In this document: positions 37,168-55,976 of the stretch, piece after piece | Position numbering within the stretch: position 1 is the first letter of the stretch | Layout: each line of letters opens with the position of its first letter | DNA from: Candidatus Spongiisociaceae bacterium | Lineage (GTDB): Bacteria; Actinomycetota; Acidimicrobiia; Spongiisociales; Spongiisociaceae | Reading direction: 5' to 3' | DNA length: 64,000 nucleotides | Assembly (NCBI GenBank): GCA_965243165.1 | Contig: OZ251535.1 | Coordinates: 1,602,246-1,666,245 of the forward strand | Made by a program: the position numbers and the translations under genes | The notes under the pieces: model-generated | What the model was told of the DNA's origin: nothing | The model's database searches: none | What the model saw: only the letters and a program-made list of their open reading frames with translations

Positions 37168-38526
<1,359 letters not shown>

Positions 38527-38696
38527 CGAATAACCGGCGCTGGCGAGGGGAATGGCGGTTCTCCTTGCGTAGAGGAAGTCGGGCGGCCATGCAGGTTAGC
38601 CTGCGATACTCTGGTTGCACCCTTCGCGCTCCGACGCCCCTGCTGCCGGTGCACCGGAGCGGCGGGCAATCGGGAAGGAGCGCGGGAGAAGCGCCG

Positions 38697-40439
38697 ATGG
38701 TGAGCAACTTGGAGCTGGCCGCCCTGTTCGGGGAGATGGCCGCGCTCACCAAGATCGCCGACGGCAGCGCCCAGTCCTTCCGGGCGCGCGCCTACGAGGC
38801 CGCCGCCAAGACCATCGAGGGGCTGTCCGCCAAGGCGGCGGAACTGTCTGCGGCCGAGCTGAAGAAACTGCCGGGCATCGGCGGCGCCACCGCCGCCAAG
38901 ATCCGCGAGTACGCCGATTCGGGGCGGATCGCCAAGCTGGAACAGCTGCGGGAGGAGTTCCCGCCGGACTTCCGGGCGCTGGTGAACGTCCCCGGCCTCG
39001 GTCCGAAGCGGGCGGTGCAGCTGCGGAACGAGCTGGGGGTGGGCTCCGCCGAGGAACTGGCGGCGGCCCTCGAAGCGGGGGCGGTGCGGGAGCTGGCGGG
39101 CTTCGGCGAACGGATGGAAGCCAACCTGCGGCGGGCCATGCAGCGGCTGGGCATGTCCGGCAAAGAGCGCCGCACTCCGATCCTGACCGCCATGCGCGAG
39201 GCGGAATGGCTGTTGGCCGAGGTGCGGGCGCTGCCGGGGGTGGAGGCCGCCGCCTACTGCGGGAGCCTGCGGCGTTTCCGGGACACGGTGGCCGACCTCG
39301 ACATCCTGGTGGGGACCTCCGATTCGGGGGCGGTGGCCGAGCGGCTGGTGAACCTGGGGTGGATCCGCCGGGTGATCGCCTCGGGGGGCACCAAGACCTC
39401 GGTGGTGAGCCAGTCGGGCCTCCAGGTGGACGTGCGGATGGTGCCGATGCGCCGGTGGGGGGCGGCGGTCCTGTATTTCACCGGTTCGCAGGCCCACAAC
39501 ATCCGGCTGCGCCGTCTGGCCATCCAGCGGGGGTGGACGCTCAACGAATACGCCCTGTCCGACGCCGGCGCCGGGGTGGAGATCGCGGCGCAGACCGAGG
39601 AGGAGATCTACGCGGCGCTGGGGCTGCCGTGGATTCCGCCCGCCATCCGGGAGGACCGGGGGGAGATCGAGGCGGGGCTGGGGGGCGGGCTGCCCGGCTT
39701 GGTGACGGACGGGGACCTGCGGGGCGATCTGCACGTCCACACCGACCTGTCGGGGGACGGGGACGATTCCCTGGAGGCGGTGCTGGCGGCGGCGGCGGAG
39801 ATGGGCTTGGATTACATCGCCGTTACCGACCACGCCGAGAACCTGGCCGTCAACGGAGCAAGCCGGGGGGAGATGCTGGCCCAGCGGCGGCGGATCGCTT
39901 CCCTCCAAGAGGAATATCCGGGGATGCGGATACTGCATGGAGTGGAGCTGAACATCGCTCCGGACGGCTCGCTCGACTACGACCGCGATTTCCTGATGGG
40001 ATACGACTGGTGCGTCGCCTCGGTGCACAGCCACTTCGACCTGGCAGCCGCCGAGCAGACCGAACGGCTGGCGGCGGCGGTGAGGCATCCGGCGGTGAAT
40101 GCGGTCGGCCATCTGCTGGGGCGGCGGATCGGGCGGAGGCCCGGCATCGAAGTGGACGTGGAGGCGGTGCTCGACGCCGCCGAGGCGACCGGTACGGCCA
40201 TCGAGATCAATTCCCACCTCGACCGGCTCGACGCCCCCGTGGAGGTGCTGTGGCAGGCGAGGCGCCGCCCCGGCGTCCGCTTCGTCATCTCCACCGACGC
40301 CCACCGGGTCGGCGAGCTGGCCCAGTCCAAATGGGGTGTGCTGCAGGCCCAGCGGGGATGGGTGGAAAAAGACAGAATCGCCAACACCTGGCCGGCCGAG
40401 CAGTTTCTGGACTGGGTTCGGGAGGTTCGAGGGGGATGA
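38697..40439 (+). CDS. polX: DNA polymerase/3'-5' exonuclease PolX (Pol beta-like domain + PHP domain)
   Basis: HhH motifs (LPGIGGATAAKI, VPGLGPKRAVQL). Pol X palm. C-terminal PHP motifs HVHTDLSGDG...HAEN... Confidence 0.85.
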   Translation: MVSNLELAALFGEMAALTKIADGSAQSFRARAYEAAAKTIEGLSAKAAELSAAELKKLPGIGGATAAKIREYADSGRIAKLEQLREEFPPDFRALVNVPGLGPKRAVQLRNELGVGSAEELAAALEAGAVRELAGFGERMEANLRRAMQRLGMSGKERRTPILTAMREAEWLLAEVRALPGVEAAAYCGSLRRFRDTVADLDILVGTSDSGAVAERLVNLGWIRRVIASGGTKTSVVSQSGLQVDVRMVPMRRWGAAVLYFTGSQAHNIRLRRLAIQRGWTLNEYALSDAGAGVEIAAQTEEEIYAALGLPWIPPAIREDRGEIEAGLGGGLPGLVTDGDLRGDLHVHTDLSGDGDDSLEAVLAAAAEMGLDYIAVTDHAENLAVNGASRGEMLAQRRRIASLQEEYPGMRILHGVELNIAPDGSLDYDRDFLMGYDWCVASVHSHFDLAAAEQTERLAAAVRHPAVNAVGHLLGRRIGRRPGIEVDVEAVLDAAEATGTAIEINSHLDRLDAPVEVLWQARRRPGVRFVISTDAHRVGELAQSKWGVLQAQRGWVEKDRIANTWPAEQFLDWVREVRGG

Positions 40440-40454
40440 TTCCATCCAGTCAGG

Positions 40455-41702
40455 TCAGTAGAGGTGTCCTTCGAGGCCGAGCAGCCATAGGGTGAGGATG
40501 GTGAGGGCGAGGCCGGCTGCGGCGCAGATCGTCCAGTCGATCAGGCGGGCGGCGAGTCTTCTGCCGGTTTTGGCGGGCGGGCGGGTGGTGTTGCGGTTTG
40601 GTTGGCGGGGGTGGTCTGGGGTGACGGCGGTGCGGGTGATTTGGTCGTGCCAGCCGCGTCGTTGGGTGTTGAAGAGGGGGGAGGCGGCGGTGAGGAGGAA
40701 GATGGGTATTCCGGCTAGGGGGATGAGGAGGGGGAGGTGGAGGGCGGCCCATCTGGCGGTTGTGCGGGTCCATCGGGGGGTTTGTCTGCCGGGGGTGCGG
40801 ATGGTTTGGATTCGGGTGAGGCGTTTGCCGATCGTTCGTCCGAGGGCGGCGGTTGTCAGGGTTTCGTAGAGGAGGAAGGGCGCCAGGAACAGACCGGCTG
40901 CGGCCGGGTAGGCGAGGAGGATGAAGGCCAAGAGGTCGACTCCGTTCGTATCGCTTCCGGTGTCTTCGTCGTTGCCGCCGAGGCCGGTCCGCATCAGGAG
41001 TTGTTCCAGCAGCGGGTTGAGGACTGTGATGCTCACGTCGTTTGTGGTTCCGTCTCTTCCCGCCGGGATGCCGGCGCGGATGCGGTCCAGCAGGTCCGCT
41101 TTCTTGGCGGGGGTGTCGACCACATCATGGAGTGCGACGGCAACTTCGATCTGTCCGGTTGTGATGTCTGGGGAAGACGTTATACCTGTTACCTCTTCGT
41201 AGCCGGATATGATGTCGTGAACGATCTGATGGCGTTTGGTGAGGCCTGCTTCGGTGAATCCCCGGTTTTCGATGATTCGGATGTCACGCGGGAAGGCTCG
41301 GACGGCTTCAACTGCCTCGGCGGGCGCTGTTCCGGTGAAGGATACAAACCCATTCACGCCGTCTTCGATCCAAGAACCTGTAAAGTCTTCCGGAAACTTT
41401 TCCCTGATTTGGTTGACCAAATAGCCGAACGGGCTTTGCCAGGCGTAATTCTCGATTGCTTCTTCGAGCGAGATGCCTTCCTGTTCTGCCAGAAATTCCA
41501 GGTCGCGGCAACGTTCTCCTGGAATTATTCCGGCGGCCAGCTGTTCGATTGGGTCCACTTTGGTCAGGGTGGTGGTAGTGACCAGAGTTCCGTATACGGG
41601 TGTACAGGTCCATGCGTTGCCGGCAGTCGGCATTGTGAGCAGGGATACCGCCAGCATTCCCAGCATCCACCCTGCCAGTGAGCTGCGCGTTCGGGTTGTC
41701 AT
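40455..41702 (-). CDS. Membrane protein with an N-terminal secreted domain homologous to the S1 protease pro-region, fused to a C-terminal RDD-family membrane domain (cassette A, gene 3)
   Basis: Signal peptide MTTRTRSSLAGWMLGMLAVSLLTMPTAGNAW. Residues ~50-230 align with the pro-region of protease 42889-44223 (EQEGISLEEAIENYAWQ...AFPRDIRIIENRGFTEAGL). C terminus carries RDD motifs (LGRTIGKRL...RRGWHD). The ATG overlaps the upstream gene stop (ATGA). Confidence 0.75.
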   Translation of the reverse strand: MTTRTRSSLAGWMLGMLAVSLLTMPTAGNAWTCTPVYGTLVTTTTLTKVDPIEQLAAGIIPGERCRDLEFLAEQEGISLEEAIENYAWQSPFGYLVNQIREKFPEDFTGSWIEDGVNGFVSFTGTAPAEAVEAVRAFPRDIRIIENRGFTEAGLTKRHQIVHDIISGYEEVTGITSSPDITTGQIEVAVALHDVVDTPAKKADLLDRIRAGIPAGRDGTTNDVSITVLNPLLEQLLMRTGLGGNDEDTGSDTNGVDLLAFILLAYPAAAGLFLAPFLLYETLTTAALGRTIGKRLTRIQTIRTPGRQTPRWTRTTARWAALHLPLLIPLAGIPIFLLTAASPLFNTQRRGWHDQITRTAVTPDHPRQPNRNTTRPPAKTGRRLAARLIDWTICAAAGLALTILTLWLLGLEGHLY

Positions 41703-42844
41703 GGGCCGCCTCGGTGTGCTTCGGAGGTTGGAACGACGATAGCGCCGGCGGCTTTGTCGTGCCATCCGCGCCGTTGGGAGTCGAAGAGGGGGGAGGCGGC
41801 TGTCAGGAAGAAGATGAGTATTCCGATGATGGGGAGTGCCAGGAGGGGAAGGTAGATCACAATCCATCTGATGCTGGCTCTCTTCCATCCTGGAACTCGG
41901 CCGTTGCCGATGCACACCACTCGGGTCTGGGTGAGAATTTTTCCGATCGTTTCTCCTCGAAGAGCAATCAGCGGCAACTCGTAGATGACCACCGAGGCTA
42001 AGACAGCAACGAAACCTATATGAAGTATAGATATAGCTATCCAGAGGTCGGATTCAGGTAACAGGCTCTGAACAGTAATCTGGAATGGTTCTATAAACGC
42101 AATACCTTTGTATATATCTATAAAAGTAGATCCTTCAAGTTCCAACAATCCTATCGACCATATCACAAGAGTGATCCCAGCTATTGAATATAGCAACCAG
42201 TCAATAGTTCGGGACAGGAACCGCTTATGCGTGGGAACTGAAAGAGAAACATTGTCCTGGATGGCCGGTGTTTTAGATGCTTGGGTAACAATTGTGCCCG
42301 CGATCTTGTCATGCCATCCGCGTCTTTGAGGGTCGAAGAGGGGGGATATAACTGTCAAGAGGAAAATTATTATTCCGATTATAGGAACCAGAAGAGGAAG
42401 ATATATTATCGCCCATCGCACGCTGGACATCTTCCATCCCGGAACGCGGCCGTTACTGTTATGAGTTACTTTGATTCCCATCATTATCTTCCCGATAGTC
42501 TGACCCCTGGCGGCGGTCATCGGAAGTTCATATAGAAGCGATGGAACCAGTAACAGGATTACACAGGCTAAGTGTATAGCAAAAATGGATAACCAAGGTT
42601 GAAAGTCAGGTACAGCATAAGTCTCAAACCATAATCTATAGGATTGTGAAGGAACTGAATCTCCACCTCCCAAGCCCACATAAGTTCTTGTAAAGCCGGT
42701 TACCCAGATTAGAGAGGACATCCCCCAGATCAGAGAGGACATCCAAAGCCAGATGCCTATAACAACATATAGTAACCAATCAATACATCGAGCTAATATG
42801 CGCCCTATCGATTCAGATTGATTGATACCGATAAGGCTCGCCAT
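41699..42844 (-). CDS. Tandem RDD-domain integral membrane protein (cassette A, gene 2)
   Basis: Two RDD units (GQTIGKIMMGIKV...RRGWHDKIAGT and GETIGKILTQTRV...RRGWHDKAAG) with multiple TM helices. Low GC. Confidence 0.75.
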   Translation of the reverse strand: MASLIGINQSESIGRILARCIDWLLYVVIGIWLWMSSLIWGMSSLIWVTGFTRTYVGLGGGDSVPSQSYRLWFETYAVPDFQPWLSIFAIHLACVILLLVPSLLYELPMTAARGQTIGKIMMGIKVTHNSNGRVPGWKMSSVRWAIIYLPLLVPIIGIIIFLLTVISPLFDPQRRGWHDKIAGTIVTQASKTPAIQDNVSLSVPTHKRFLSRTIDWLLYSIAGITLVIWSIGLLELEGSTFIDIYKGIAFIEPFQITVQSLLPESDLWIAISILHIGFVAVLASVVIYELPLIALRGETIGKILTQTRVVCIGNGRVPGWKRASIRWIVIYLPLLALPIIGILIFFLTAASPLFDSQRRGWHDKAAGAIVVPTSEAHRGGP

Positions 42845-42888
42845 TAGTTACTCCTTTCCTTGTGTTATTTTGTGCTTCATAATTGTGT

Positions 42889-44223
42889 TTATGAAGTAGC
42901 TACTGTCCAGCCTGGGAAGGCATCATCAATGTGATGAACCGGTGTAAAAAGATCCCGACGTTTTAAGCCAAATATCCAGTTGCCACTGTGAATACCGTAT
43001 GCAGTGGTTCCATGAAACCAAGGGCCTCCAGAATCACCTCCTCTGGCCTTTCTATTATGCATAGCAACCAGCTTTCGTCCTTCAGGATAGTATACGCTGC
43101 CCCTGTATACTCTGTCTACAGTGTAGCCGCTAGATTTCCCATATTTTCGCAACCATTGGCCTTCCATTGGTACTCCAGTAGATTCAACAAACTGATAATC
43201 GTTTGGTCCGCTGTCGTAACGAAATTCGTTCACAAGGGTATAGCCAGAAGGAACAGAATGTCTCTGAAGGTCCCCCCATTCTCCTTGATGTTCTATCCCC
43301 CAACCTAGCCGAAGATAAATAGAGCCGTCAATTAATCTTTGATTATTGCCACAGTGTCCTGCAGTAGAAATATGTCTCCTTCCACTCGTATGTTCAAGAA
43401 CAAAGCCCACTGTGCATGTGCTGAGATGCATTCCTCCTGTTACATCCTCATCTCCCCCGCCAGGAGTGGAGGTTACAATATTGAAAAGAACGTCTTTATT
43501 AGTCCCAGTACTGGCAACACTCCCGACTGGAAGGTTAGCTTGGAGAAGATCAAGCATAGATGTCTTCTCCTCAGGAGTAGATTCTGAGTTTTTTAGTACT
43601 ACTTCCACGGTTAGTAGTCCAGTTCCGATATCGTAGGTTGAGGCGGCTGTATCTATATTATCGTTGCCTATCACGCTATTATGAACTGAATCGAGACGTT
43701 GTCTAAGATCGGCTTCGGTGAAGCCCCGGTTCTCGATGATCTGCACGGCACGCGGGAAGGCCCGGATGGAACTCGCAGCACCGGCGGGCGCTGTTCCGGA
43801 GAAGGCCACCCAAGCTGTCAGATCTTCTTCGATCCGGGCTCCGGCGAAATCACCCGGATAATCTTGGCGGATTTCGTTGACCAAATAGGCGAGCGGGCCT
43901 TGCCAGGCGTACTTCTCGATCGCTTTGTCGAGTGAGATGCCTTCCTGTTCGGCCTGCCAGGTCAGCTGCTCGCGAAGCGCTTCGGATATTTCTCCCGCCG
44001 CGAACCGGGAAACCGGGTCGCTCGGGTTGCTCGGTGCCTTTTCGTCGGTTCCCCCTCCGCCGGAGGGTGCGCCGGTGCTGGGGGTTCCGAACCCGCCGTC
44101 GTCGGATCCGGGGGGTGAAACGGCCTGAACGGTCGAGGGGACGACCAGCGCCAACGCCAGCAACAGCAGGATGCCCGCCCTCGCCTTCGTGCGCCTCCGA
44201 ACTCTGCGTCTGCGGATCATCAT
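42889..44223 (-). CDS. Secreted S1-family serine protease, alpha-lytic protease/streptogrisin-like (S1E), with an N-terminal pro-region (cassette A, gene 1)
   Basis: Signal peptide, then a ~200-aa pro-region. Catalytic His in TAGHCG and Ser in GDSGGPWF. Paired Cys residues. Confidence 0.85.
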   Translation of the reverse strand: MMIRRRRVRRRTKARAGILLLLALALVVPSTVQAVSPPGSDDGGFGTPSTGAPSGGGGTDEKAPSNPSDPVSRFAAGEISEALREQLTWQAEQEGISLDKAIEKYAWQGPLAYLVNEIRQDYPGDFAGARIEEDLTAWVAFSGTAPAGAASSIRAFPRAVQIIENRGFTEADLRQRLDSVHNSVIGNDNIDTAASTYDIGTGLLTVEVVLKNSESTPEEKTSMLDLLQANLPVGSVASTGTNKDVLFNIVTSTPGGGDEDVTGGMHLSTCTVGFVLEHTSGRRHISTAGHCGNNQRLIDGSIYLRLGWGIEHQGEWGDLQRHSVPSGYTLVNEFRYDSGPNDYQFVESTGVPMEGQWLRKYGKSSGYTVDRVYRGSVYYPEGRKLVAMHNRKARGGDSGGPWFHGTTAYGIHSGNWIFGLKRRDLFTPVHHIDDAFPGWTVATS

Positions 44224-44420
44224 GAGATGCCTCCTGCCATCCTGCTTCTATTGCTTCTTCGAAGATATCACATCTAACAGGGTTCCGGAGGCTGAAACCG
44301 CATATTTCATAATTGTGTGCAATATGCAAAACCAAAGGATTGCATATTGTATACAATCTCAGCAAAACAGGTTAGCCTCACCGCTCGAGTCCGACTGATA
44401 CAGTTTATCTTCGCTGGCGA
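44224..44420 (-). promoter_or_regulatory. Low-GC promoter/leader of cassette A with a GntR-type palindromic operator; ~90% identical to 55130-55277 upstream of cassette B
   Basis: Near-dyad TGCAATATGCAA-N10-TTGCATATTGTA. The second arm also contains the perfect palindrome TTGTATACAA (GntR-like t.GT...AC.a). AT-rich -10-like hexamers. Confidence 0.5.
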
Positions 44421-44439
44421 GCTGATCGGTGCCGCTATT

Positions 44440-44700
44440 GGATCAATTCCCACCTCGACCAGCTTTGACGCCCCAGTCAAAGGTGCTGCGGCGGGCGAGA
44501 TGCCGCCTCGGTGTCCGCTTCGTCATCTTCACCGAGGCCTGCCGAGTCGGTGCTCCAGACCAGTCAAAGTGGGGGTGGGCTGCAGGCAGCGGAGCAGGAT
44601 GGAAGAGACAGGATCGCCAACACCTGGACAGCCGGGCGGTTCTCGACTGGGTTCGGAAGGTCTGCCGGGGTGACCGGACGTCTCTGCGGAGTGTCGGGCG
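44440..44700 (+). pseudogene. Degenerate duplicate of the polX 3' end (~75% identical to 40185-40440)
   Basis: ORF 44429..44713 translates to ...GVRFVIFTEACRVGAPDQSKWGW...DRQHLD.RAVLDWVRKV, against PolX ...GVRFVISTDAHRVGELAQSKWGV...DRIANTWPAEQFLDWVREV. Together with the intact polX end it brackets cassette A. Confidence 0.65.
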
Positions 44701-44723
44701 GCGGCGGCGTTAGGCTCCCGTCC

Positions 44724-45083
44724 ATGGACGGGCAAGGTACGGGAACGGGCGCGGACGCCGTCGGCCGGGGCGGAAGTTCTCTGGACCGGTTGGTGCGGGC
44801 CCACCCCCATGGGGTGATCCTCACGGTCTGGGTGACGCCTCGGGCGGTGCGCAGCGAGGTGGCGGGGCCGCATGGATCGTATCTGCGGGTGCGGGTCGCG
44901 GCCCCCGCCGAGGGGGGGCGGGCCAACCAGGCCGTTGTCCGCCTGCTTTCCAGCACCTTCGGGTGCCGGGTGGATCTGTTGTCCGGCGCCAGGAGCCGCA
45001 TCAAGCGCATGCTGCTGCGGGGCGCTGACCCCGACTCGGTGACCGCCGCCGTCGCCGCCGTTGCCCGGCGGGGCCGCAGATGA
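44724..45083 (+). CDS. DUF167 (YggU-like) protein
   Basis: Motif ...ILTVWVTPRAVRSEVAGPHGSYLRVRVAAPAEGGRANQAVVRLL.., characteristic of DUF167. Confidence 0.6.
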   Translation: MDGQGTGTGADAVGRGGSSLDRLVRAHPHGVILTVWVTPRAVRSEVAGPHGSYLRVRVAAPAEGGRANQAVVRLLSSTFGCRVDLLSGARSRIKRMLLRGADPDSVTAAVAAVARRGRR

Positions 45084-45138
45084 TGCGCAGGCGGGGCGGC
45101 CCTGCTACTTTCACGGCGTCCAGCAACGCCGGAGGTGG

Positions 45139-45531
45139 ATGATGCCGGTTCTGCGCCGAAGAAAGAAGCTGGCCGATTCAACGCTCGCCTATTTCAAGAG
45201 GATCCTCCAAGAGCGGGAGCGGGAGCTGTTGGCGGTCATTGCCGAACACGAGGCGGAGCGCCAAGAGGTGCGCATGGCCGAGACGGCGGCCGAGCGCAGC
45301 CCCGACCCCGACTCGGCCGACGGCGGGTCCATGGCTTTCGAGTTCGAGAAGGAGCTGTCTGTCGACCGCAACACCCGAGACATCCTGGCCCAGGTCCGCT
45401 CGGCCTTGGCGGCGGTGGAGGACGGCGTCTACGGCGTGTGCCGGGTTTGCCGGAGCCCCATCAGGGTGGCGCGGCTCCGAGCCCTTCCCCACACCAGCCT
45501 ATGCGTGGCTTGCGCCTCGAAAAGGCGCTGA
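45139..45531 (+). CDS. DksA/TraR-family C4 zinc-finger transcription factor
   Basis: Coiled-coil N terminus. C-terminal CRVC...CVAC zinc finger. ggaggtgg RBS. Confidence 0.75.
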   Translation: MMPVLRRRKKLADSTLAYFKRILQERERELLAVIAEHEAERQEVRMAETAAERSPDPDSADGGSMAFEFEKELSVDRNTRDILAQVRSALAAVEDGVYGVCRVCRSPIRVARLRALPHTSLCVACASKRR

Positions 45532-45980
45532 CCGTCCGGCGGCGCCGGGCCGCGCTGGTTGGGGCGGTGGTGTTGACGGCCGATCAGATCACCAAGCTGT
45601 GGGCCCGCACCGCCCTGGCGGACGGCGGCATCGAGGTGATACCGGGTTTCCTGCGGTTCCATCTGGGCGAGAACGCCGGCTCGGCCTTCTCCCTCTTCCA
45701 GGGCCAGGGCCCGCTGCTGGGGCTGGCGGCCGCCGCCGCCTCCGTTTTCATCCTGGTGATAGTCGAGCGGGCGGGCGCCCGTCTGGAGGTGGCCGGGCTT
45801 TCCTTGATCCTGGGCGGCGCGGTCGGCAACCTGGCCGACCGGGTGGTGAAAGGCCCCTGGTTGACCGGGACGGTCACAGATTTCATCGACTTCAGCTTCT
45901 GGCCGAACTTCAACCTGGCCGACTCGGCGATCACCCTGGGCGTGGCGGGGATGCTGTGGGCGGCGAGACGAGGCGGATGA
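45501..45980 (+). CDS. lspA: Lipoprotein signal peptidase II
   Basis: Conserved LspA regions: ADQITKLWA, NAGSAFSLF, FNLADSAITLG. Confidence 0.8.
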   Translation: MRGLRLEKALTVRRRRAALVGAVVLTADQITKLWARTALADGGIEVIPGFLRFHLGENAGSAFSLFQGQGPLLGLAAAAASVFILVIVERAGARLEVAGLSLILGGAVGNLADRVVKGPWLTGTVTDFIDFSFWPNFNLADSAITLGVAGMLWAARRGG

Positions 45981-46924
45981 CCGTCCCCGAATCGATGGAG
46001 GGGGAACGGTTCGACGCCGCCCTCGCCCGGTTGGCGGGGGTGAGCCGCTCCCGGGCGCGGCGGCTGATCGAGTCGGGCGAGGCTGGCCTGTCCCCGGTGG
46101 GCGGGGCGGGCGCCCCCGGCCGGACCGGCGTCCGGCGCATCCGGCTGAACACGCGGGCGGCGGCGGGCGACCGTATCTGGTTCCGGCCGCCGGAGGAACC
46201 CGTCCTCGGCCCCGAACCCATCCCCCTCGCCGTGCTCTACGAGGATCCGCACCTGGCGGTGATCGACAAACCGGCCGGCCTGGTCGTCCACCCCGGGGCG
46301 GGCAACTGGGGCGGCACCCTCGTATCGGCCCTGCTTCACTGCTGGCCGGAGGTGGAAGGGGTGGGGGAGCACCCCCGGTGGGGCATCGTCCACCGGCTCG
46401 ACAAGGACACCTCCGGGGCGATGGCGGTCGCCCGCCGCCCGGAGGCGCACCGCGGCCTGTCGGCGGCGCTGGCGGCCCGCCGGGTGAATAGGAGCTACCT
46501 GGCGCTGGTGCACGGCGCCTTCACCGCCGGCGCCGGGACCATCGACGCCCCCATCGACCGCCGCCGGGGCCGCCGCTTCGTCGGCCCGGACGGGAAACCG
46601 GCGGTTACCCGCTACCGTCGTCTGTCGGAGTGGCGGCGGCCCGGTCTCAGCCTTTTGGAGATCACCCTGGAGACGGGCCGCACCCACCAGATCAGGGTCC
46701 ACCTGGAGTCGATCGGGCGGCGGGTGGTGGGCGACGCCCTCTACGGCAAGCCGGGCGGCGGAGGGGCGCCCGATCCCGGGAGGCAGTGGCTGCATTCCCG
46801 GCTTCTGAGCTTCACCCACCCGATCACGGGGGCGCCCGTCGAGGCGGAGGCCCCCCTCCCCCCGGAGCTGCGGTCTTCCCTGGATGAGCTCGGCCCCCCC
46901 GACCTGGGCGCCGCCCCCGGGTGA
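45977..46924 (+). CDS. RluA-family 23S rRNA pseudouridine synthase (RluD-like)
   Basis: S4 domain plus the catalytic motif HRLDKDTSG. ATGA overlap with lspA. Confidence 0.85.
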   Translation: MTVPESMEGERFDAALARLAGVSRSRARRLIESGEAGLSPVGGAGAPGRTGVRRIRLNTRAAAGDRIWFRPPEEPVLGPEPIPLAVLYEDPHLAVIDKPAGLVVHPGAGNWGGTLVSALLHCWPEVEGVGEHPRWGIVHRLDKDTSGAMAVARRPEAHRGLSAALAARRVNRSYLALVHGAFTAGAGTIDAPIDRRRGRRFVGPDGKPAVTRYRRLSEWRRPGLSLLEITLETGRTHQIRVHLESIGRRVVGDALYGKPGGGGAPDPGRQWLHSRLLSFTHPITGAPVEAEAPLPPELRSSLDELGPPDLGAAPG

Positions 46925-46927
46925 AGC

Positions 46928-47225
46928 AAGGAACCGAAGCGGTCGAGCCTGCGAAAGTTCTCCGAACATACGTACCCCTAGCCGGAAGCCCGAAAATTTG
47001 GTATACCTATTGGGCTGAAGCACAAACACCGCCGCGAGTTCTGGAGAGGGCGGCGGTCAGAGAGACGGATCCCGTTCGGTCCGGCCCCGTCGGGCCGGGG
47101 GCGGCCTTGTGCGGCCCGGCGGATTTTCGTTCAAGGAGGCGGCGGCGGGGGATGGGCCCGGGTTTGCCGGCGGGGAGGGGCCGATTTTCGCGTTCTCGAG
47201 GGCATTTGGGTTGGATTGAAGGAGC
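46928..47225 (+). repeat. Full copy of the ~300-bp non-coding repeat element; inverted partner at 61141-61470
   Basis: ~90% identity over ~290 bp to the reverse complement of 61.2-61.47 kb. Indels between copies break every reading frame. Contains the palindrome ggtatacc and GC hairpins (ccggccccgtcgggccgg). Confidence 0.7.
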
Positions 47226-47403
47226 GGACGGCGGCGTGTTTGCCTCAGCGGGTTTGCCGAAAGGAGGGTATCTATGGCCTATATCGGCAGATGTCATGTT
47301 TGAGGCGCAACGGGCGCTGGCGAGTCGGTCTATGCCTGACGGCAGGGGCGGCCGACCGCTCGCTCGAGGCTCCCGGGCAGCCAGCTGGGCCGCTCTCCAA
47401 GGG

Positions 47404-47589
47404 TCAGTCGTCTTCGGTTTCGGTCGGGGAGGGTTCCGGATCGGGGTCGGCCGGAGAAATGTGGGAGTAGTAGCCCGCTATGTAGAACACTATCTGCAGC
47501 AGGACGAACACGCCCAAGGTTATCCACGGCCACCGAACCATCAGTTCCCCGAGTTCACCGACCAGCCTAACCACCGCATTCCCCTTCAA
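47404..47589 (-). pseudogene. Duplicated 3'-end fragment of the DUF2339 gene (tandem duplicate of 47650-47835)
   Basis: The ORF ends ...SPADPDPEPSPTETEDD, against the DUF2339 C terminus ...SPVPPADPDPEPSPTETEEAA. About 170 bp of nucleotide identity, including the 3' flank. Confidence 0.6.
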
Positions 47590-47733
47590 CCTCGACTGGC
47601 ATCATCGTAGTTTACATCGTTGATTGACATCGGGAACGCAACGGGTGCCCGCGAGTCGGTCTATGCCTGACGGCAGGGGCGGCCGACCGCTCGCTCGAGG
47701 CCCCCGGGCAGCCGGCCGGGCCGTTTCCAGGGG

Positions 47734-50475: not shown

Positions 50476-50567
50476 AGCCCCTCCCTTCTGGGCCGATCCT
50501 AGCGAAGGAGAGTCTTCCTGTTCGGACTGTGTTCCTTCCGCCGGTCGATGCGCCGGGGTGATTCCGT

Positions 50568-51050
50568 TCAGTAGAGGTGTCCTTCGAAGCCGAGCAGCCA
50601 TAGGGTGAGGATGGTGAGGGCGAGGCCGGATGCGGTGCAGATCGTCCAGTCGATCAGGCGGGCGGCGAGCCTTCTGCCGGCTGCGGCGGGCGGGCGGGTG
50701 GTGTTTCGGCTTGGTTGGGGGTCTGGGGTTACGGCGGTGCGGGTGATTTTGTCGTGCCATCCGCGTCGTTGGGGGTCGAAGAGGGGGGAGGCGGCGGTGA
50801 GGAGGAAGATGGGTATTCCGGCCAGGGGGATGAGCAGGGGGAGGTGGAGGGCGGCCCATCTGGCGGTTGTGCGGGTCCATCTTGGGGTTTGTCCGCCGGG
50901 GGTGCGGATGGTTTGGATTCGGGTGAGGCGTTTACCGATCGTTCGTCCGAGGGCGGCGGTTGCCAGGGTTTCGTAGAGAAGGAAGGGTGCCAGGAACAGG
51001 CCGGCGGCGGCCAGGTAGACGAGGAGCAACAGCACCAAGGGGTCGACGCC
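50568..51050 (-). repeat. ~480-bp direct repeat (3' end of the pro-region-RDD fusion gene). Copies at 40455-40935 (~90% id) and a partial third copy at 51712-51845
   Basis: Nucleotide alignment of the two cassette termini. The encoded C termini (…RTIGKRLTRIQTIRTPG.QTPRWTRTTARWAALHLPLLIPLAGIPIFLLTAASPLF...LGLEGHLY) are nearly identical. The segment is high-GC, unlike the rest of the cassettes. Confidence 0.75.
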
Positions 51051-51701
51051 GCGGCCGGCATCGCTTTCACCACCCGGCACATCTGGCTCAGTTCCGTCTC
51101 CGGTGTTCATCAACATTTCGAGGCGGTGCAGGAGTGGATTCATAACGATCAGGTCAATGTCATCTATGGTTCCGTCTCTTCCGGCTGGAATTTCAGCACG
51201 GATGCGGTCTAGTATGGTTGCTTTCTTGGCGGGAGTGTCGACCGAATCGTCGAGCACGAAGTTCACCGTGAATTGTCCTGTGGCTATATCGAAGGTAGAT
51301 CCAGTTTCTATTACGCTTTCGTTGTTCCATACGATATCATGAACGATGGTGAGTCGTTCTTTGAGTTGTGCTTCGGTGTAGCCGCGGTCCTCGATGATTT
51401 GTATGTCGCGGGGAAACGCCAGAATTGTTTCTACGGCGCCGGCGGGGGCTTCTCCAGCGAAGGCGATCCAAACCGTCTGGTCGTCTTCGATCCGAGCTCC
51501 TGCAAAATCTTCTGGATATTCTTCCCGGATATCGTTGACCATCGTAGACAGTGATCCCTTTGTAAGGGTGGCAGCGGCGGCCAGAGCATCGGATACGAGT
51601 GTACTGGCCCATGCGTTGCCGGCGGTCAACGCTGCAAGTAGGAAAACCGCCAGCATTCCCAGCAACCGCCATGTCTGTGAGCTTCGCCTCCGGGTACTCA
51701 T
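50568..51701 (-). CDS. Pro-region-like domain fused to an RDD membrane domain (cassette B, gene 4). Shorter pro-like domain than its paralogs
   Basis: Signal peptide MSTRRRSSQTWRLLGMLAVFLLAALTAGNAWA. Pro-like segment (…ILAFPRDIQIIEDRGYTEAQL…). RDD C terminus. Start overlaps the upstream gene stop. Confidence 0.75.
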   Translation of the reverse strand: MSTRRRSSQTWRLLGMLAVFLLAALTAGNAWASTLVSDALAAAATLTKGSLSTMVNDIREEYPEDFAGARIEDDQTVWIAFAGEAPAGAVETILAFPRDIQIIEDRGYTEAQLKERLTIVHDIVWNNESVIETGSTFDIATGQFTVNFVLDDSVDTPAKKATILDRIRAEIPAGRDGTIDDIDLIVMNPLLHRLEMLMNTGDGTEPDVPGGESDAGRGVDPLVLLLLVYLAAAGLFLAPFLLYETLATAALGRTIGKRLTRIQTIRTPGGQTPRWTRTTARWAALHLPLLIPLAGIPIFLLTAASPLFDPQRRGWHDKITRTAVTPDPQPSRNTTRPPAAAGRRLAARLIDWTICTASGLALTILTLWLLGFEGHLY

Positions 51702-52576
51702 CGGCCGCCTCCTGTTTGCCGATTGTTCGTCCGAGGGCGGCGGCTGCCAGGGTTTCGTAGGAGGAAGAGCGTCAGGAGCAGGCTGGCGGCGGCTAAGCAG
51801 ACGAGGAGTAACAGCACCAGGGGGTCAACGCCGCGGCCGACTTCGCTTTCACCATCCGGCATACCTAGCTCGGGTCCGCCTTCGATGCGATCGACAACCT
51901 TCAGGTCGATGTCATCTATGGTTCCGTCTCTTCCCGCCGGTATTTCAGCGCGGATGCGGTTTAGTATGGTTGCTTTCTTGGCGGGGGTATCGATTGAATC
52001 ATGCAGTACGATAGTAACTTGGATCTGTCCGGTAGTGATGGAGTAAGTCGATATGTAATCTATCACCTCTTCGTAGCTGGACGCGATTCCGGAAACAATC
52101 CCGTGGCGTTTGTTGAGGGTTGCTTCGGTGAATCCCCGGTTTTCGATGATTCGGATGGGGTGTGGGAAGGCTCGGATGGCTTCAACGGCCTCGGCGGGCG
52201 CTGTTCCGGTGAAGGATACAAAACCATTCACGTCGTTCCTGATCCAAGAGCCTGTAAAGTCTTCGGGATATTTTTCCCTGATTTCGTTGACTAAATAGGA
52301 GAACGCGTCTTGCCAGGCGTACCTCTCAATGGATTCTTCGAGCGAGATGCCTTCCTGTTCTGCTATCAATTCCAGGTCTTGGCAAAGGTATCCAGAGATT
52401 ATTCCGGCGGCCAGCTGTTCAACTGGGTCGGCCTTTGTCAGGGTAGTATTGGTGTCTGGAGTGTCGGATACGGTTGTACAGGTCCATGCGTTGCCGGCGG
52501 TCGGCGCTGCGAGCAGGGAAACCGTCAGTATTCCCAGCAACCGCCATGCCAATGAACTGCGGGCTCGGGTTTTCAT
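51698..52576 (-). CDS. Pro-region-like secreted protein, a C-terminally truncated paralog of the pro-region-RDD fusions (cassette B, gene 3); likely a degenerate copy
   Basis: The N-terminal 230 aa are ~75% identical to 40455..41702. The TM region ends in the out-of-frame tail ...RNPGSRRPRTNNRQTGGGR. The alternative frame at 51712-51760 still encodes AAALGRTIGK (RDD motif), so a frameshift plus deletion is inferred. Confidence 0.6.
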   Translation of the reverse strand: MKTRARSSLAWRLLGILTVSLLAAPTAGNAWTCTTVSDTPDTNTTLTKADPVEQLAAGIISGYLCQDLELIAEQEGISLEESIERYAWQDAFSYLVNEIREKYPEDFTGSWIRNDVNGFVSFTGTAPAEAVEAIRAFPHPIRIIENRGFTEATLNKRHGIVSGIASSYEEVIDYISTYSITTGQIQVTIVLHDSIDTPAKKATILNRIRAEIPAGRDGTIDDIDLKVVDRIEGGPELGMPDGESEVGRGVDPLVLLLLVCLAAASLLLTLFLLRNPGSRRPRTNNRQTGGGR

Positions 52577-53730
52577 GAGCTGCCCCTCGACTGTTGGCGG
52601 CCTTGAAGCCCTTCGGAGGTTGGAACGACGATGGTGCCTGCGGCTTTGTCGTGCCATCCGCGCCGTTGGGGGTCGAAGAGGGGGGAGGCGGCTGTCAGAA
52701 GGAAGACCAGTATTCCGATGATGGGTAGTGCGAGGAGGGGAAGGTAGAGCACCATCCATCTTATGCTGGCTTTCTTCCATCCGGGAACTTGGCCGTTGTC
52801 GATGCATACTACTTGGGTCTTGGTGAGTATTTTTCCGATTGTTTCTCCTCGAAGAGCAGTCAGCGGCAACTCGTAGATAACTACCGAGATGAAGACAATG
52901 GTGAAGGAATTATGAATTCCAAATACAGCCAACCAGAAGTCGGATTCATATATCATCCGTCTTATACCCTCAATCTGATAAGAGATGCTCAATGGTTCTA
53001 TGGCAACCCTGCTATTGTATAGGTCTATGAAGGTTGATCCTTCGAGTTCTAGCAATCCAATTGACCATATCAGAAAGGTAACTCCAGCTATTGAATATAG
53101 CAGCCAGTCGATAGTTCGGGCCAGCAACCGTTTGTGTGCACCGGTTGGAAAGAGAAGTGATGTTCTTGATTCTTTGTCTTTACTTACTGGAGCGACGAGT
53201 GTGCCAGCGATTTTGTCGTGCCAGCCGTGTCGTTGAGAGTTGAACAGCGGTGATGCGGTTGTCAGGAGGAAAATCAGTATTCCGATTATTGGAATCAGAA
53301 GAGGAAGGTAGAGTATCGCCCATCTTATGCTGGATCTTGTCCATCCTGGAAAGTGGCCCTTATTGTTGTGGGTTACTTTGATTCCCATCAGTATCTTCCC
53401 GGCTGTTTGCCCTCTCGCGGCGATCAGCGGTAGTTCATATAGAAGAGATGGAAGTAGTAATAGTATTACACCGGCCAGATGTATAGCAAAGATAGATGTC
53501 CAGGGTTGGAGGTCAGGTATCGCATAGGTTTCGATCCATGTTACCGGAGGCGGCGGAGGGTCAGGTTCAACCTGATAAGTACTCCGTTTTGTTCCCGTCA
53601 AGAGTGCTATCCAATCTTGAGATGATAATAAAAGAGTTATGCCTGTAATAACATAGATCGTCCAATCGATGCACCGAGCTAATACGCGCCTCGTTGATTC
53701 AGATTGGTTGATCTTTATGATGCTTGCCAT
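52573..53730 (-). CDS. Tandem RDD-domain membrane protein (cassette B, gene 2), paralog of 41699..42844
   Basis: Start MASIIKINQSES, matching MASLIGINQSES in the paralog. Two RDD units (GQTAGKILMGIKV...RHGWHDKIAG and GETIGKILTKTQV...RRGWHDKAAG). Confidence 0.7.
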   Translation of the reverse strand: MASIIKINQSESTRRVLARCIDWTIYVITGITLLLSSQDWIALLTGTKRSTYQVEPDPPPPPVTWIETYAIPDLQPWTSIFAIHLAGVILLLLPSLLYELPLIAARGQTAGKILMGIKVTHNNKGHFPGWTRSSIRWAILYLPLLIPIIGILIFLLTTASPLFNSQRHGWHDKIAGTLVAPVSKDKESRTSLLFPTGAHKRLLARTIDWLLYSIAGVTFLIWSIGLLELEGSTFIDLYNSRVAIEPLSISYQIEGIRRMIYESDFWLAVFGIHNSFTIVFISVVIYELPLTALRGETIGKILTKTQVVCIDNGQVPGWKKASIRWMVLYLPLLALPIIGILVFLLTAASPLFDPQRRGWHDKAAGTIVVPTSEGLQGRQQSRGSS

Positions 53731-53779
53731 TTTCTTTTTGCCCTCCTCGTCTCCTGCTATTACCTTTATAGCCGATGGT

Positions 53780-55129
53780 TTATGAAGTAGCGACATCCCA
53801 ACCAGGAAAGGCGTCTTCAATATGATGGACCGGAGTAAAAAGGCTTCTCCTTTTACTGGCTGGACGCCCTATATCATTTTTGTAGCCAAAATGAATACCA
53901 TAGGCGGTGTCTCCCCGGAACCATGGACCCCCAGAATCTCCTCCTTGAGTTGTATGACTAAACATTGCTACTAGATGTTCTGCTATACCGGCATTAACAA
54001 CACCTCTGTAGACCCAATCTGATTTATAACCTGTGGACATTCCATAATTTAATAATACTTGACCTTCCACTGGGACTCCGGTTGACAAGATCGGCCGAGA
54101 GTGCCGCCCGCTGCTATTATAACGAATACTATTTGTCAGAGTGTGTCCTGAAGGTACGGAATGCCGTTGAAGGTCTCCCCATCGTCCTTCATGTTCGTCT
54201 TCAAAAGTCAATGTTATCCTAATATTGCCGTCCCTCAATGTCTGATTGTTGGAACAGTGGCCTGCAGTGGAGATATTCCTCTCCCCGTTTGAGTTCTCAA
54301 GAACAAACCCTGCTGTGCACCGGCTGAGATGTGTCCCGCCTCGTATGTCGGATTCAGCTCCGCCCGCTATGTCACTTACGACATTCAGAGTCACGTCGCT
54401 GGTTCCAACGTTGGCAACGCTTCCGATCGGGAGTTCGGCGCGTAGAAGATCCGACAGTGCTTTCTTCTGTGCGGGGGTGTCAGCCGAATCCTCGATTGCG
54501 ACGGTTACCTCCAACCGGCCGGTAGCGAGGTCGTAGGTCGAGACAGCGTCTTCGACCTTGTCGTTTGCCATCACGCTGTCATGAACGGCGGTGAGGCGCC
54601 GATTGAGGCCAGCTTCGGTGAAACCCCGGTTCTCGATGATTTGCACGGCGCGCGGGAAGGCGCGGATGGAGCTCGCAGCACCGGCGGGCGCCGTTCCGGA
54701 GAAGGCCACCCAGGCTGTCAGATCTTCTTCGATCCGGGCTCCGGCGAAATCATTCGGATAATCTTGGCGGATCTCGTTGACCAGATAGGCGAGGGGGCCT
54801 TGCCATGCGTACTTCTCAATCGCTTTGTCGAGTGAGATGCCTTCCTGTTCGGCCTGCCAGGTCAGCTGTTCGCGAAGGGCTTCGGAGATCTCTCCCGCCG
54901 CGAACCGGGCAACCGGGTCACTGGGGCTGCTCGGCGCCTCTTCGTTGCCTCCCCCTCCGCTGGCTGGTACACCGGCGCCGGGGCCGGGGGTTCCGAACCC
55001 GCCGTCGTCGGATCCGGGGGGTGAAGCGGCCTGAACGGCCAAGGGGAGGACCAGCGCCAGCGCCAGCAACAGCAGGATGCCCGCCCTCGCCTTCGTGCGC
55101 CTCCGAGCTCTGCGTCTGCGGATCATCAT
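53780..55129 (-). CDS. Secreted S1E (alpha-lytic/streptogrisin-like) serine protease with pro-region (cassette B, gene 1), paralog of 42889..44223
   Basis: Signal peptide. Pro-region ~90% identical to the cassette A protease. The mature domain has diverged (TAGHCSNN, GDSGGPWF). Confidence 0.85.
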   Translation of the reverse strand: MMIRRRRARRRTKARAGILLLLALALVLPLAVQAASPPGSDDGGFGTPGPGAGVPASGGGGNEEAPSSPSDPVARFAAGEISEALREQLTWQAEQEGISLDKAIEKYAWQGPLAYLVNEIRQDYPNDFAGARIEEDLTAWVAFSGTAPAGAASSIRAFPRAVQIIENRGFTEAGLNRRLTAVHDSVMANDKVEDAVSTYDLATGRLEVTVAIEDSADTPAQKKALSDLLRAELPIGSVANVGTSDVTLNVVSDIAGGAESDIRGGTHLSRCTAGFVLENSNGERNISTAGHCSNNQTLRDGNIRITLTFEDEHEGRWGDLQRHSVPSGHTLTNSIRYNSSGRHSRPILSTGVPVEGQVLLNYGMSTGYKSDWVYRGVVNAGIAEHLVAMFSHTTQGGDSGGPWFRGDTAYGIHFGYKNDIGRPASKRRSLFTPVHHIEDAFPGWDVATS

Positions 55130-55277
55130 GAGATTCCTCCTGTCATCCGGCTTCCTATTGCTTCTTCGAAGATATCACATCGAATAGGGTTCCGGAGGCT
55201 GAAACCGCCTATTTTGTAATTGTGTGCAATATGCAAAACCGGAAGATTGCATATTGTATACAATCTCAGCAAACCGG
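55130..55277 (-). promoter_or_regulatory. Promoter/operator region of cassette B, lying between the GntR gene and the protease gene
   Basis: Contains the same TGCAATATGCAA / TTGCATATTGTATACAA dyads as the cassette A leader. Low GC. Confidence 0.5.
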
Positions 55278-55976
55278 TCAGGCCATGGCGTTGTTTCGGC
55301 GCGCTGATATCAGTTGTTGTATTTCGGAAGAGACTGCCGTCAGGTGCTCGGCGATCCACTGCTCGGCCCGGTCGGAGTCCTTGGCTCGGATGGCTTCCGT
55401 CAGGACTTTGTACATCGAATGCCGGTGCGGGGCTGCGTCGACGCTCATCCAGTAGCGGCCCAGTCCGGTGCGGAGCCTGCCCACGATGGCGGCGGTCAGC
55501 GGGCAGTGGGCGGCGGTGTAGACGCGCTGGTAGAACCGGTCGGTGAGCTCCCGCCGCCGGGCGGGGTTATCCTCGCCGTCGATCTGCTTCGCCAGTTCGG
55601 TGAGCTCGTCCACGGCGGCGGGGGTGATCCGTTCGATCGCCAACCGCAGGGCGAAGGTCTCCAACAAGATGCGGAGCTGGTAGGTCTCCTCCAGCTCCTC
55701 GGGTTCGAGCATTCGGACCGTTGCCCCCCGGTGGGGGGCGTAATCCACCAGGCCTTCCGCGGCGAGGGTGTGGAGGGCGGCGGTCACCGGCACCCGCGAG
55801 GTGTTCAGCTCTTTGGCCAGGGCCGCTTGGCGCAGCCTTTGCCCCGGTTTCAGGACGCCGGTGATGATCGCCTCGCGCAGAGCGGCCGTTACGGCTTCTT
55901 CCACCGTGCTGTAACGCAGGTTGGCCCGGTGGGCTATCTCTGCGAGAGTTCCTTCTGCGGCCATCCGCCCGGCCAT
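55278..55976 (-). CDS. GntR-family transcriptional regulator (FadR/FCD subfamily)
   Basis: N-terminal wHTH (...GQRLRQAALAKELNTSRVPVTAALHTLAAEGLV). C-terminal all-helical FCD domain. Sits immediately upstream of the cassette B operator. Confidence 0.8.
   Translation of the reverse strand: MAGRMAAEGTLAEIAHRANLRYSTVEEAVTAALREAIITGVLKPGQRLRQAALAKELNTSRVPVTAALHTLAAEGLVDYAPHRGATVRMLEPEELEETYQLRILLETFALRLAIERITPAAVDELTELAKQIDGEDNPARRRELTDRFYQRVYTAAHCPLTAAIVGRLRTGLGRYWMSVDAAPHRHSMYKVLTEAIRAKDSDRAEQWIAEHLTAVSSEIQQLISARRNNAMA

Follow-up and report, generated by a model that had tools for sequence, protein, structure and literature searches.

How does a cassette of chromosomal genes come to lie between a housekeeping gene and a second, unreadable copy of that gene's own end? 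The question is raised by the polX locus in a 64,000-nt stretch of DNA, hereafter the window, from a Candidatus Spongiisociaceae bacterium (contig OZ251535.1, positions 1,602,246 to 1,666,245).

The working polX gene (38697..40439, plus strand) encodes a 580-aa family X polymerase with a PHP domain (Pfam HHH_8, DNA_pol_B_thumb, and PHP), and the protein is 90-95% identical in amino acids to the polX products of relatives. Its 3' end (40175..40439, plus strand), the left and in-frame copy of the repeat, recurs in the same orientation at 44412-44673 with 79-83% identity and seven indel events. When the window was compared with itself by blastn, 40175-40426 matched 44412-44661 at 78.8% over 255 nt (E = 4.8e-49), which places the similarity well past chance level. 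A MAFFT alignment of 40185-40440 with 44440-44700, where the original prediction had seen the polX tail recur, gave 83% mean column identity over ~230 common columns with several indels. The repeat is thus real, although the ~75% identity first proposed for it was slightly low. The core with clear homology is 40204-40439 against 44459-44673, and fainter similarity extends back to 40175 and 44412; the first ~47 nt of the distal copy (44412-44458) are much more diverged than the remainder, with ~62% identity. The window-type polX end reads ...EKDRIANTWPAEQFLDWVREVRGG.

We refer to the distal copy as the relic (44412..44700, plus strand), the displaced resident polX 3' end plus ~27 nt of native spacer. 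It is frameshifted, as had been predicted: seven indel events separate it from the working copy and leave no translatable frame, and tblastn finds just a 48%-identical fragment. The relic runs ~27 nt beyond its old stop codon (TGA, 44671-44673) into the spacer that lies natively 3' of polX in relatives, and this polX-downstream type of spacer matches L013, L017, and L001. The spacer behind the working copy, J1 (40440..40454, TTCCATCCAGTCAGG), which runs from the polX stop to the geneC stop, is unlike that of the relic and belongs to the type found to the left of a second cassette, cassette B.

The two copies bracket cassette A, an insert of ~4.0 kb (40440-44411) whose GC content falls to 0.42, compared with ~0.70 in the flanks, in agreement with the 4-kb low-GC insert originally described. 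It encodes three genes on the minus strand. GeneC (40455..41702) has a signal peptide, a protease-prodomain-like region, an RDD membrane domain (Pfam), and, at the C-terminus, a short TM segment. The pro-region of geneA is a paralogue of the geneC N-terminal part, and the L001 homologue has the same C-terminal end. GeneB (41699..42844) encodes a membrane protein with two RDD domains (Pfam RDD x2, E = 6e-38). GeneA (42889..44223) encodes a secreted S1 serine protease of the streptogrisin/alpha-lytic type with a long pro-region, an assignment based on a weak Pfam Trypsin match, a GDSGGP motif, and similarity of residues 256-415 to the PDB sequences of SGPA and 2oua. None of the cassette proteins received a name from NCBIfam. 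Upstream of geneA lies a regulatory region (44224..44376, minus strand) with a conserved palindromic element at 44312-44357, and in a promoter and terminator scan of 40300-44800 the number of sites was not above that in shuffled sequences.

The edges of cassette A coincide with chromosomal neighbours. On the left it begins at the polX stop; on the right, its homology to cassette B reaches as far as 44376, which corresponds to the stop codon of the GntR gene in cassette B. These edges indicate that cassette A is a piece of chromosome and not an element with ends of its own. Between the right edge and the relic lies a filler of ~35 nt (44377..44411), which does not significantly resemble either polX or the 3' end of the GntR gene. 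We had considered a fragment of the GntR gene 3' end at this edge, and rejected it since the 35 nt that follow 44376 match nothing significantly.

The search for mobility genes agreed with the original prediction that no integrase or transposase is present. In the window cassettes, Pfam and NCBIfam gave only RDD and trypsin-like domains, and no recombinase domain was found in the cassette copies of L001, L016, L017, and L024 (Pfam tables and, for L001, the ORF list). There are no tRNA genes in 36000-62500 and no Rfam matches over 38000-62500. No relatives of the cassette were found on viral contigs or on mobilisable plasmids, the only plasmid match being a 30%-identical Nocardiopsis protease. 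As for the traits of a transposon or insertion sequence, there is no transposase, the cassette was not reported to end in terminal inverted repeats, and the duplication is ~260 bp.

Inspection of the polX neighbourhood in relatives, proposed as a check in the original prediction, revealed sites both with and without a cassette. In L013, L019, L020, and L021 the site is empty: malic, an intact polX, and DUF167-dksA-lspA-rluD follow one another without a cassette. These are four independent assemblies of one relative, whose polX is 92% identical to that of the window in nucleotides. L013 matches the window over 38692-40437 at 91.9% and then contiguously over 44412-46927 at 90.6%, so that the relic and the genes downstream of it are collinear with the empty-site genomes. 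In L017 the layout is that expected of a donor, polX / RDD-RDD-protease / R2, with the cassette directly convergent on polX, and its protease gene is nearer to that of cassette A (78% nucleotide identity) than to that of cassette B (68%). The cassette family also lies directly beside polX in L001, whereas in L024, a more distant relative, the cassette is found at an unrelated locus without polX. The idea that the cassette normally sits beside polX in the donor lineage thus holds for the close relatives and not beyond them. A genome in which a window-type polX end adjoins a cassette of the A type was not found outside the lineage of the window and L012. The slot downstream of polX varies in its content: it is occupied by a low-GC methyltransferase-like gene in L001 and by ~5 kb of other genes in L002, and it is empty in L004.

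The junctions are not an assembly artefact, since they are common to three independent assemblies of sister strains. The cassette-relic-DUF167 junction is reproduced in L015 (98.6% identical over 40799-47082) and in L012 (~94%), and the polX-cassette junction in L022.

Behind the relic lies the DUF167-dksA/TraR-lspA-rluD operon (44724..46924, plus strand; Pfam), which directly follows the intact polX in the empty-site relatives and is collinear with L013 and L019. In L009, L011, and L014 the operon is found behind a response regulator instead. It was thus itself relocated next to polX earlier in this lineage and is not the ancestral neighbour of polX. The original locus of DUF167-rluD and DUF2339 in L001 and L002 was reached through protein look-ups. 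Cassette B (50568..55273, minus strand), 6 kb further on, comprises four genes (two geneC-like, geneB', and geneA') flanked by DUF2339 and by R1, a GntR gene. A paralogue of cassette A with ~75% nucleotide identity, it is collinear with L016. The linkage of rluD, repeat, DUF2339, and cassette B is that of the window assembly alone, the sister contigs ending at the 283-bp repeat. The dS between cassettes A and B is 0.47-0.92, as against 0.18 between the window and L013, which means that cassette A is no recent copy of the nearby and much older paralogue. Cassette B is context and has no part in the duplication of the polX end. The original prediction had taken account of neither the relocated operon, nor the older cassette B, nor the restriction of the polX link to close relatives.

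A tentative mini-remnant of the polX end was spotted by eye at 50535..50567 (plus strand), where GCCGGGGTGA at 50552-50561 is followed by TTCCGT and abuts the stop of the cassette B geneC'. Its score is marginal, with 54/1000 and 57/1000 shuffles scoring as high. The same motif at 44664-44673 could suggest a target duplication of 10-15 nt flanking DUF167...DUF2339; this idea is kept as tentative only, weakened by the marginal shuffle scores and because the relic runs ~27 nt past the motif into native spacer.

The relic decays neutrally, and its changes are blind to codon position (18/12/15 substitutions at positions 1/2/3). It has accumulated seven indel events in the window and five in L012, and between these two strains it is 81% identical, while the flanks are 93.5-96.3% identical; the private changes of the window relic are biased from GC to AT (14 vs. 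3). In a neighbor-joining tree the relics cluster together (99%) and are joined by the working copy of the window (81%), with L013 outside. By this grouping, the event came after the empty-site lineage had split off, and the polX sequences involved were very similar. The repeat is the product of an old natural event, with a neutral divergence of roughly 10% per lineage.

The differences between the two copies give some indication of where recombination took place. Changes found only in the working copy concentrate in 40358-40436, with eight there and one in 40224-40357 (Fisher p = 0.0015 vs. the relic lineage); restricted to those in common with L022, they are four and one (p = 0.038). The two copies differ in a complementary manner, the relic side in the 5' half (9 vs. 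2) and the working copy in the 3' half (4 vs. 1; Fisher p = 0.036), which is the pattern that a single crossover predicts. A crossover at about 40320-40369 would fit, and the final ~80 nt of the working polX probably came in with cassette A. A strict Campbell model expects the 5' half of the relic to be derived from the donor. Its differences there show no excess of third codon positions (3/9) and so resemble decay more than functional divergence, which leaves the reciprocal-chimera test as suggestive (p ~0.04). A scan of informative sites over the whole of polX gave a mosaic, with no clean recombination tract or breakpoint upstream of the repeat.

These observations lead us to the following scheme. 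The recipient would have been a genome in which polX led straight into DUF167-dksA-lspA-rluD, as kept in L013 and L019-L021. The incoming DNA would have been a piece of chromosome from a close strain, in which the cassette of S1 protease and RDD proteins stood tail-to-tail against polX, and would have started ~260 bp before the end of polX, taken in the whole cassette, and ended at the stop codon of the GntR gene that follows. It would have integrated by homologous recombination in the polX 3' end. With the cassette inserted, polX would have remained intact while its terminal stretch and the spacer downstream of it were both replaced by new ones, and the ~260 bp that had formed the end of the resident polX, together with their native spacer, would have been displaced 4.2 kb downstream, still joined to DUF167, there to lose their reading frame and decay. 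The insertion by homologous recombination that had originally been proposed is supported by the empty site, the donor-type layout, and the spacer types, and from these sequence comparisons we consider it probable that cassette A entered the polX tail in this way, most likely as a circularised molecule through a single (Campbell-type) crossover. We infer the circular intermediate from the fact that DNA was duplicated rather than deleted, by analogy with E. coli, in which circularised DNA and a single crossover gave duplications of 109-950 bp of the homologous segment, and true homology-facilitated illegitimate recombination (HFIR) yielded deletions (Amarir-Bouhram et al., 2011, PMC3240628).

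The same final structure would result from an HFIR-like event, in which a linear donor anchored in polX by homology had its GntR-stop end joined illegitimately at a point ~260 bp before the polX stop, duplicating that segment. The 35-nt filler, followed by ~47 nt in which the relic is highly diverged, resembles an illegitimate junction, the changes in the relic look like pure decay, as would fit a wholly resident relic, and HFIR has been proposed for the analogous displacement of 3' ends at T6SS and rhs loci (Kirchberger et al., 2017, PMC5361080). However, described HFIR events delete recipient DNA, and the duplications in E. coli were traced to circular single crossovers (Amarir-Bouhram et al., 2011, PMC3240628). 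Here recipient DNA was duplicated and not deleted, the junction at 44377-44411 has no assignable microhomology, and the complementary differences of the two copies weakly favor a reciprocal crossover. On balance, we regard the one-ended route as rather unlikely.

The footprint also fits a site-specific island directed at the polX 3' end, with a surrogate gene end of its own and an integrase since lost, comparable to the elements that enter tRNA or protein genes at their 3' ends: the insert provides an intact gene end, the displaced old end lies at the far side, and the inserts in the slot differ among relatives (L001 and L002, with nothing in L004). Such an origin is very unlikely, given that no recombinase domain occurs in the cassettes of the window (A and B) or of the four relatives searched, that three genes fill the cassette and leave no space for a lost one, and that the repeat is long and uniformly homologous, with no short stretch of identity as a core and no tRNA gene nearby. 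The edges at natural chromosomal neighbours and the lack of viral or plasmid relatives also speak against it. Even less probable, indeed scarcely credible, is a tandem duplication in situ of the polX 3' end and the cassette, with A and B as the copies and the DUF167...DUF2339 block inserted between them later. Cassettes A and B do share orientation and edges, and the left flank of cassette B has the short motif resembling the polX end. The duplication is contradicted by the A-B dS, far older than the polX-end repeat, which postdates the split of the window from L013, and by the empty-site genomes, in which polX is already joined to DUF167 without cassette A; the relic spacer, moreover, is of the L013/L017 type and not of the cassette B type.

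A further reading goes beyond the single event. The cassette with its bracketing polX-end repeats might constitute a module mobilised by homology without a recombinase, in which recombination between the repeats would release the cassette as a circle with one polX fragment, and these circles, or comparable DNA taken up from neighbours that had lysed, would recombine back into the polX of other strains by a single crossover. This would account for the 5' half of the relic resembling an already decayed fragment and not functional donor sequence. If true, the polX 3' end would be a population-wide docking site among sponge-symbiont Acidimicrobiia, at which diverged alleles of the protease/RDD cassette and other low-GC cargo are shuffled. 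We consider it quite doubtful that the locus works in this way.

Taken as an acquisition by homologous recombination, the locus documents such an event in uncultured sponge symbionts with a completeness that is unusual for a natural case, since the site can be recovered both with and without its cassette, along with the donor-type layout and a footprint in neutral decay. It suggests that chromosomal cassettes without a mobility gene can pass between strains while the target gene is kept intact, and that an essential operon (lspA, rluD) can be severed in this manner from its former upstream gene. The space behind polX is a recurrent insertion slot in this family, and the relic provides a local neutral clock for these genomes. 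The current understanding of recombination mechanisms is unchanged: the polX locus is a natural and well-documented case of a process already known and no new kind of element.

Among known systems, integrase-borne islands and prophages in gene 3' ends likewise supply an intact end with the insert and leave the old end at the far junction; the polX insert differs from them in having no integrase, no short identical att core, and edges at chromosomal gene boundaries. HFIR was reportedly described by de Vries and Wackernagel and by Prudhomme and colleagues, both in 2002. As in that process, a one-sided homologous anchor lets foreign DNA without a homologue integrate, but in its classical form recipient DNA is lost where the illegitimate join is made, and at polX ~260 bp were duplicated. 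Displacement of C-terminal or 3' ends at rhs, CDI, and T6SS effector-immunity loci is said to have been reported by Jackson and colleagues in 2009. It has been treated in these loci by Kirchberger et al. (2017, PMC5361080). There, too, recombination in a conserved part of the gene brings a new 3' end with its cargo and leaves the old 3' end as a downstream orphan, without an integrase, and repeated events build arrays. However, polX encodes a repair polymerase and no polymorphic toxin, its replaced end is nearly the same allele so that the function of the gene is not swapped, and the cargo lies convergent and outside the gene.

Another close parallel is the Campbell-type integration of circular DNA (insertion-duplication) seen in suicide-plasmid mutagenesis. 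Both leave a direct repeat of the homologous segment on either side of the insert and the target gene intact on one side, and neither needs a dedicated recombinase. The ~260-bp repeat falls within the range of the insertion-duplications recovered experimentally (Amarir-Bouhram et al., 2011, PMC3240628). The polX case differs in being natural and old, with one repeat since decayed, and in its vehicle, which was apparently a circularised chromosomal fragment of a related strain and not a plasmid.

The 3′ end of polX (38697–40439, + strand) is present twice in the window. Its last ~260 bp have a second, directly oriented copy 4.2 kb downstream, as the original prediction had claimed. A MAFFT alignment of 40185–40440 with 44440–44700 gave 83% identity over ~230 shared columns with several indels, and self-blastn of the window matched 40175–40426 to 44412–44661 (78.8% over 255 nt, E=4.8e-49). 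The distal copy, said to be out of frame, has seven indel events and is not translatable as polX; we call it the relic (44412–44700) and the in-frame end the working copy. The low-GC insert between them was also borne out, with GC falling from ~0.70 to 0.42–0.46, and an integrase, transposase, or tRNA gene was found nowhere in 36–62 kb of the window, in agreement with the predicted lack of an integrase or transposase.

The insert, cassette A, carries three genes on the − strand: geneC (40455–41702; signal peptide, a part with paralogy to the pro-region of the protease, and an RDD domain), geneB (41699–42844; two RDD domains), and geneA (42889–44223), a streptogrisin/alpha-lytic-type S1 protease with a long pro-region and PDB matches to SGPA and 2oua, plus an upstream region of 150 nt containing a palindrome. 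A malic enzyme gene (37168–38526, −) precedes polX, and DUF167, dksA/TraR, lspA, and rluD (44724–46924, +) follow the relic. An 800-nt repeat-rich spacer separates rluD from DUF2339 (47734 to ~50470, −). Cassette B (50568–55273; geneC′, geneC″, geneB′, geneA′) lies between DUF2339 and the GntR/FCD regulator R1 (55278–55976, −), beyond which is the R2–R5 block (hydrolase, E1 dehydrogenase subunits, GPAT). Cassette B has ~75% nucleotide identity to cassette A and one extra geneC-like gene.

Three more low-GC islands occur in the window (8071–9243, 12336–13808, and 19090–23541, the last with a 1483-aa ORF; GC 0.44–0.54 against a background of ~0.69), and none of them matched cassettes A or B. A 283-bp sequence is present twice in inverted orientation with 90% identity, just after rluD (46935–47215) and between the GPAT gene and dtd (61191–61467). 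It could be a small repeat element and had no Rfam match; ~400 nt of its second copy are missing from the relative L001, and the sister-strain contigs L012 and L015 end inside it. A ~200-bp direct repeat (47306–47516 and 47637–47837, 85% identity) adjoins it.

Inspection of polX neighbourhoods in relatives revealed the site without a cassette. Contig L013 (Logan) has an intact polX, 91.9% identical in nucleotides to that of the window, followed by a 48-nt spacer and directly by DUF167-dksA-lspA-rluD; the relic and operon (44412–46927) aligned contiguously to it at 90.6%. The same malic enzyme/polX/DUF167 layout was found in three assemblies from other samples (L019, L020, L021). The relic is collinear with these empty-site genomes past the old TGA (44671–44673) and through a ~27-nt spacer, which also follows polX in L017 and L001. 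Therefore, the relic is the resident polX terminus, still joined to its former downstream neighbours. Of the occupied sites, L015 is 98.6% identical to window 40799–47082, and L012, at ~94% identity, reproduces the cassette-relic-DUF167 junction. In L012, 42928–44040 (1.1 kb, most of geneA; site at L012 2130) is deleted, and geneB, geneC, and the relic are still present. L022 comes from the sample that also gave L012; its polX, with a window-type C-terminus, leads into the window's polX-cassette spacer and then the 3′ end of geneC.

The relics of the window and L012 (44459–44673 and L012 2529–2745) are 81% identical, that is, 19% different, against 93.5–96.3% identity for the cassette, upstream region, and operon around them. 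Relic substitutions are spread evenly over codon positions 1, 2, and 3 (18, 12, and 15), indel events number seven in the window and five in L012, and private changes of the window-lineage relic are biased from GC to AT (14 vs. 3). The relic is decaying neutrally. Its 19% divergence compares with a synonymous divergence of 0.10–0.13 between the same two strains, so its rate of change is somewhat above that of synonymous sites, in keeping with synonymous sites being constrained or under biased gene conversion in a 70%-GC genome (GC3 ~0.9).

A polX scan of reference genomes matched sponge-associated Acidimicrobiia (Ca. Spongiisociaceae): L001 (90% aa identity), L002 (84%), and L003–L005 (65–69%). 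Behind polX, these have the R-block and not DUF167. R2 adjoins polX directly in L004, ~5 kb of other genes fill the slot in L002, and the L001 slot holds a 40%-GC gene of 1043 aa (11797–14928), which looks like a DNA methyltransferase/type IIG restriction enzyme, followed by one geneC-like gene. Insertions have recurred at this 3′ flank of polX. In L009, L011, and L014 (rluD 82–85% aa), the DUF167-rluD operon is preceded by a response regulator and followed by an AAA_14 gene, with dnaE next in line in L009 and L011, the two contigs reaching that far; only the window, L012, and L013 lineages have DUF167-dksA-lspA-rluD behind polX. The juxtaposition of polX and DUF167 is therefore a derived state: a housekeeping block with essential genes had moved to the 3′ side of polX by the time cassette A came in. 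The region from 40.4 to 55.3 kb is lineage-specific throughout; the rluD-to-DUF2339 linkage is known from the window's assembly alone.

A donor-type arrangement is found in L017, a 67-kb contig with the order R2/protease-RDD-RDD/polX, where the last RDD gene converges on polX with 19 nt between the ends. Its protease gene has 78% nucleotide identity to that of cassette A and 68% to that of cassette B. The spacer behind the working copy (TGA TTCCAT...TCAGTAG) is of the type adjoining cassette B (TGA TTCCGT TCAGTAG) and unlike the one behind the relic, so cassette A brought its own polX-proximal junction. At the other edge, A/B homology ends at 44376/55282, exactly at the GntR-gene stop codon in B. 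With edges at polX and at this stop, the mobilised piece looks chromosomal, without ends of its own, like a stretch taken out from −260 of polX up to the next gene.

The cassettes of this family seen in close relatives all lie in the polX/DUF2339-to-R-block interval (window A and B, L012, L015, L016, L017, L001). L024 (protease 61% aa) has a GntR-protease-RDD-RDD module at an unrelated locus, and L026 (47% aa) has a homologue beside an AbiE system. The claimed placement of the cassette beside polX in the donor lineage holds for close relatives, directly so in L017, and is absent from the more distant L024. The family is small (41 proteins at E<=1e-10), and neither viral contigs nor mobilisable plasmids yielded a member. 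A ~46-nt palindrome ahead of the protease gene, ATTGTATACAATATGCAAT-N10-11-TTGCATATTGCACACAAT, is kept in every cassette copy, even with the protease just 61% identical (window 44312–44357 in A and 55219–55264 in B; L016 ~3728–3782; L017 ~9868–9915; L024 ~7846–7893). Its half-site TTGTATACAA resembles GntR/FadR-type operators. A GntR/FCD gene is immediately upstream of the palindrome-bearing cassette in B, L016, and L024; cassette A and L017 have none.

Synonymous divergence (dS) from the window is 0.10–0.13 for L012, 0.18 for L013, and 0.29–0.32 for L001. The cassette alleles here have diverged far beyond the genome around them: cassette A and B genes have dS of 0.47–0.92 and dN of 0.21–0.24, and cassette B is collinear with L016 at ~84%. 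Cassette A is therefore no recent copy of the neighbouring B, and this dS rules out an in situ tandem duplication. In an NJ tree of the duplicated segment, the two relics formed a group (99%) that was joined by the working copy of the window (81%) and excluded L013; four to seven sites supported relics plus working copy and none a relic plus L013. Thus, the event took place after divergence from the empty-site lineage and before the window and L012 separated. At the time of duplication, both polX ends had almost identical sequences, and the donor end closely resembled that of the recipient.

Changes unique to the working copy number eight in its last ~80 nt (40358–40436) and one in 40224–40357, against 8 and 22 in the relic lineage (Fisher p=0.0015); counting just those shared with L022 gives four vs. 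one (p=0.038). Third codon positions account for five of the eight, and five of the eight match L002 or other relatives, a pattern that fits an import of sequence better than new mutations. Relic-stem changes are distributed oppositely (nine in the 5′ half, two in the 3′ half). A single reciprocal crossover at ~40320–40369 predicts this complementary distribution (p=0.036, 2x2 test), a result we regard as suggestive only, because relic-side changes have no third-position bias. The first ~47 nt of the relic (44412–44458) are much more diverged (~62% identity), and the 35 nt preceding it matched nothing.

The lack of a recombinase, the chromosomal ends of the insert, and a left join within homologous sequence indicate that integration was by homologous recombination in the polX 3′ end. 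The homologous segment was duplicated and not deleted, which is just what a single crossover with a circular molecule yields. Such a Campbell-type crossover of circularised DNA, which the original prediction proposed, is probably how cassette A entered. It is supported by the empty site, by the donor-type layout, and by the absence of mobility genes; the picture now also includes that DUF167-rluD(-DUF2339) had earlier been relocated behind polX and that cassette B was an older resident. The same structure would result from a one-ended homologous crossover combined with illegitimate joining upstream of its anchor, a route we consider unlikely. An E. coli assay for homology-facilitated illegitimate recombination gave instead 56/60 recombinants with duplications of 109–950 bp, attributed to single-crossover events of circularised DNA (PMC3240628). 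Selection plausibly favoured the duplication outcome, because a double crossover in polX and the GntR gene/R-block would delete the intervening lspA/rluD operon. The cassette A insertion is a clear natural instance of an already known process. The displaced polX end is analogous to the displaced gene 3′ ends of T6SS effector-immunity and rhs loci, for which the one-ended model was proposed (PMC5361080).
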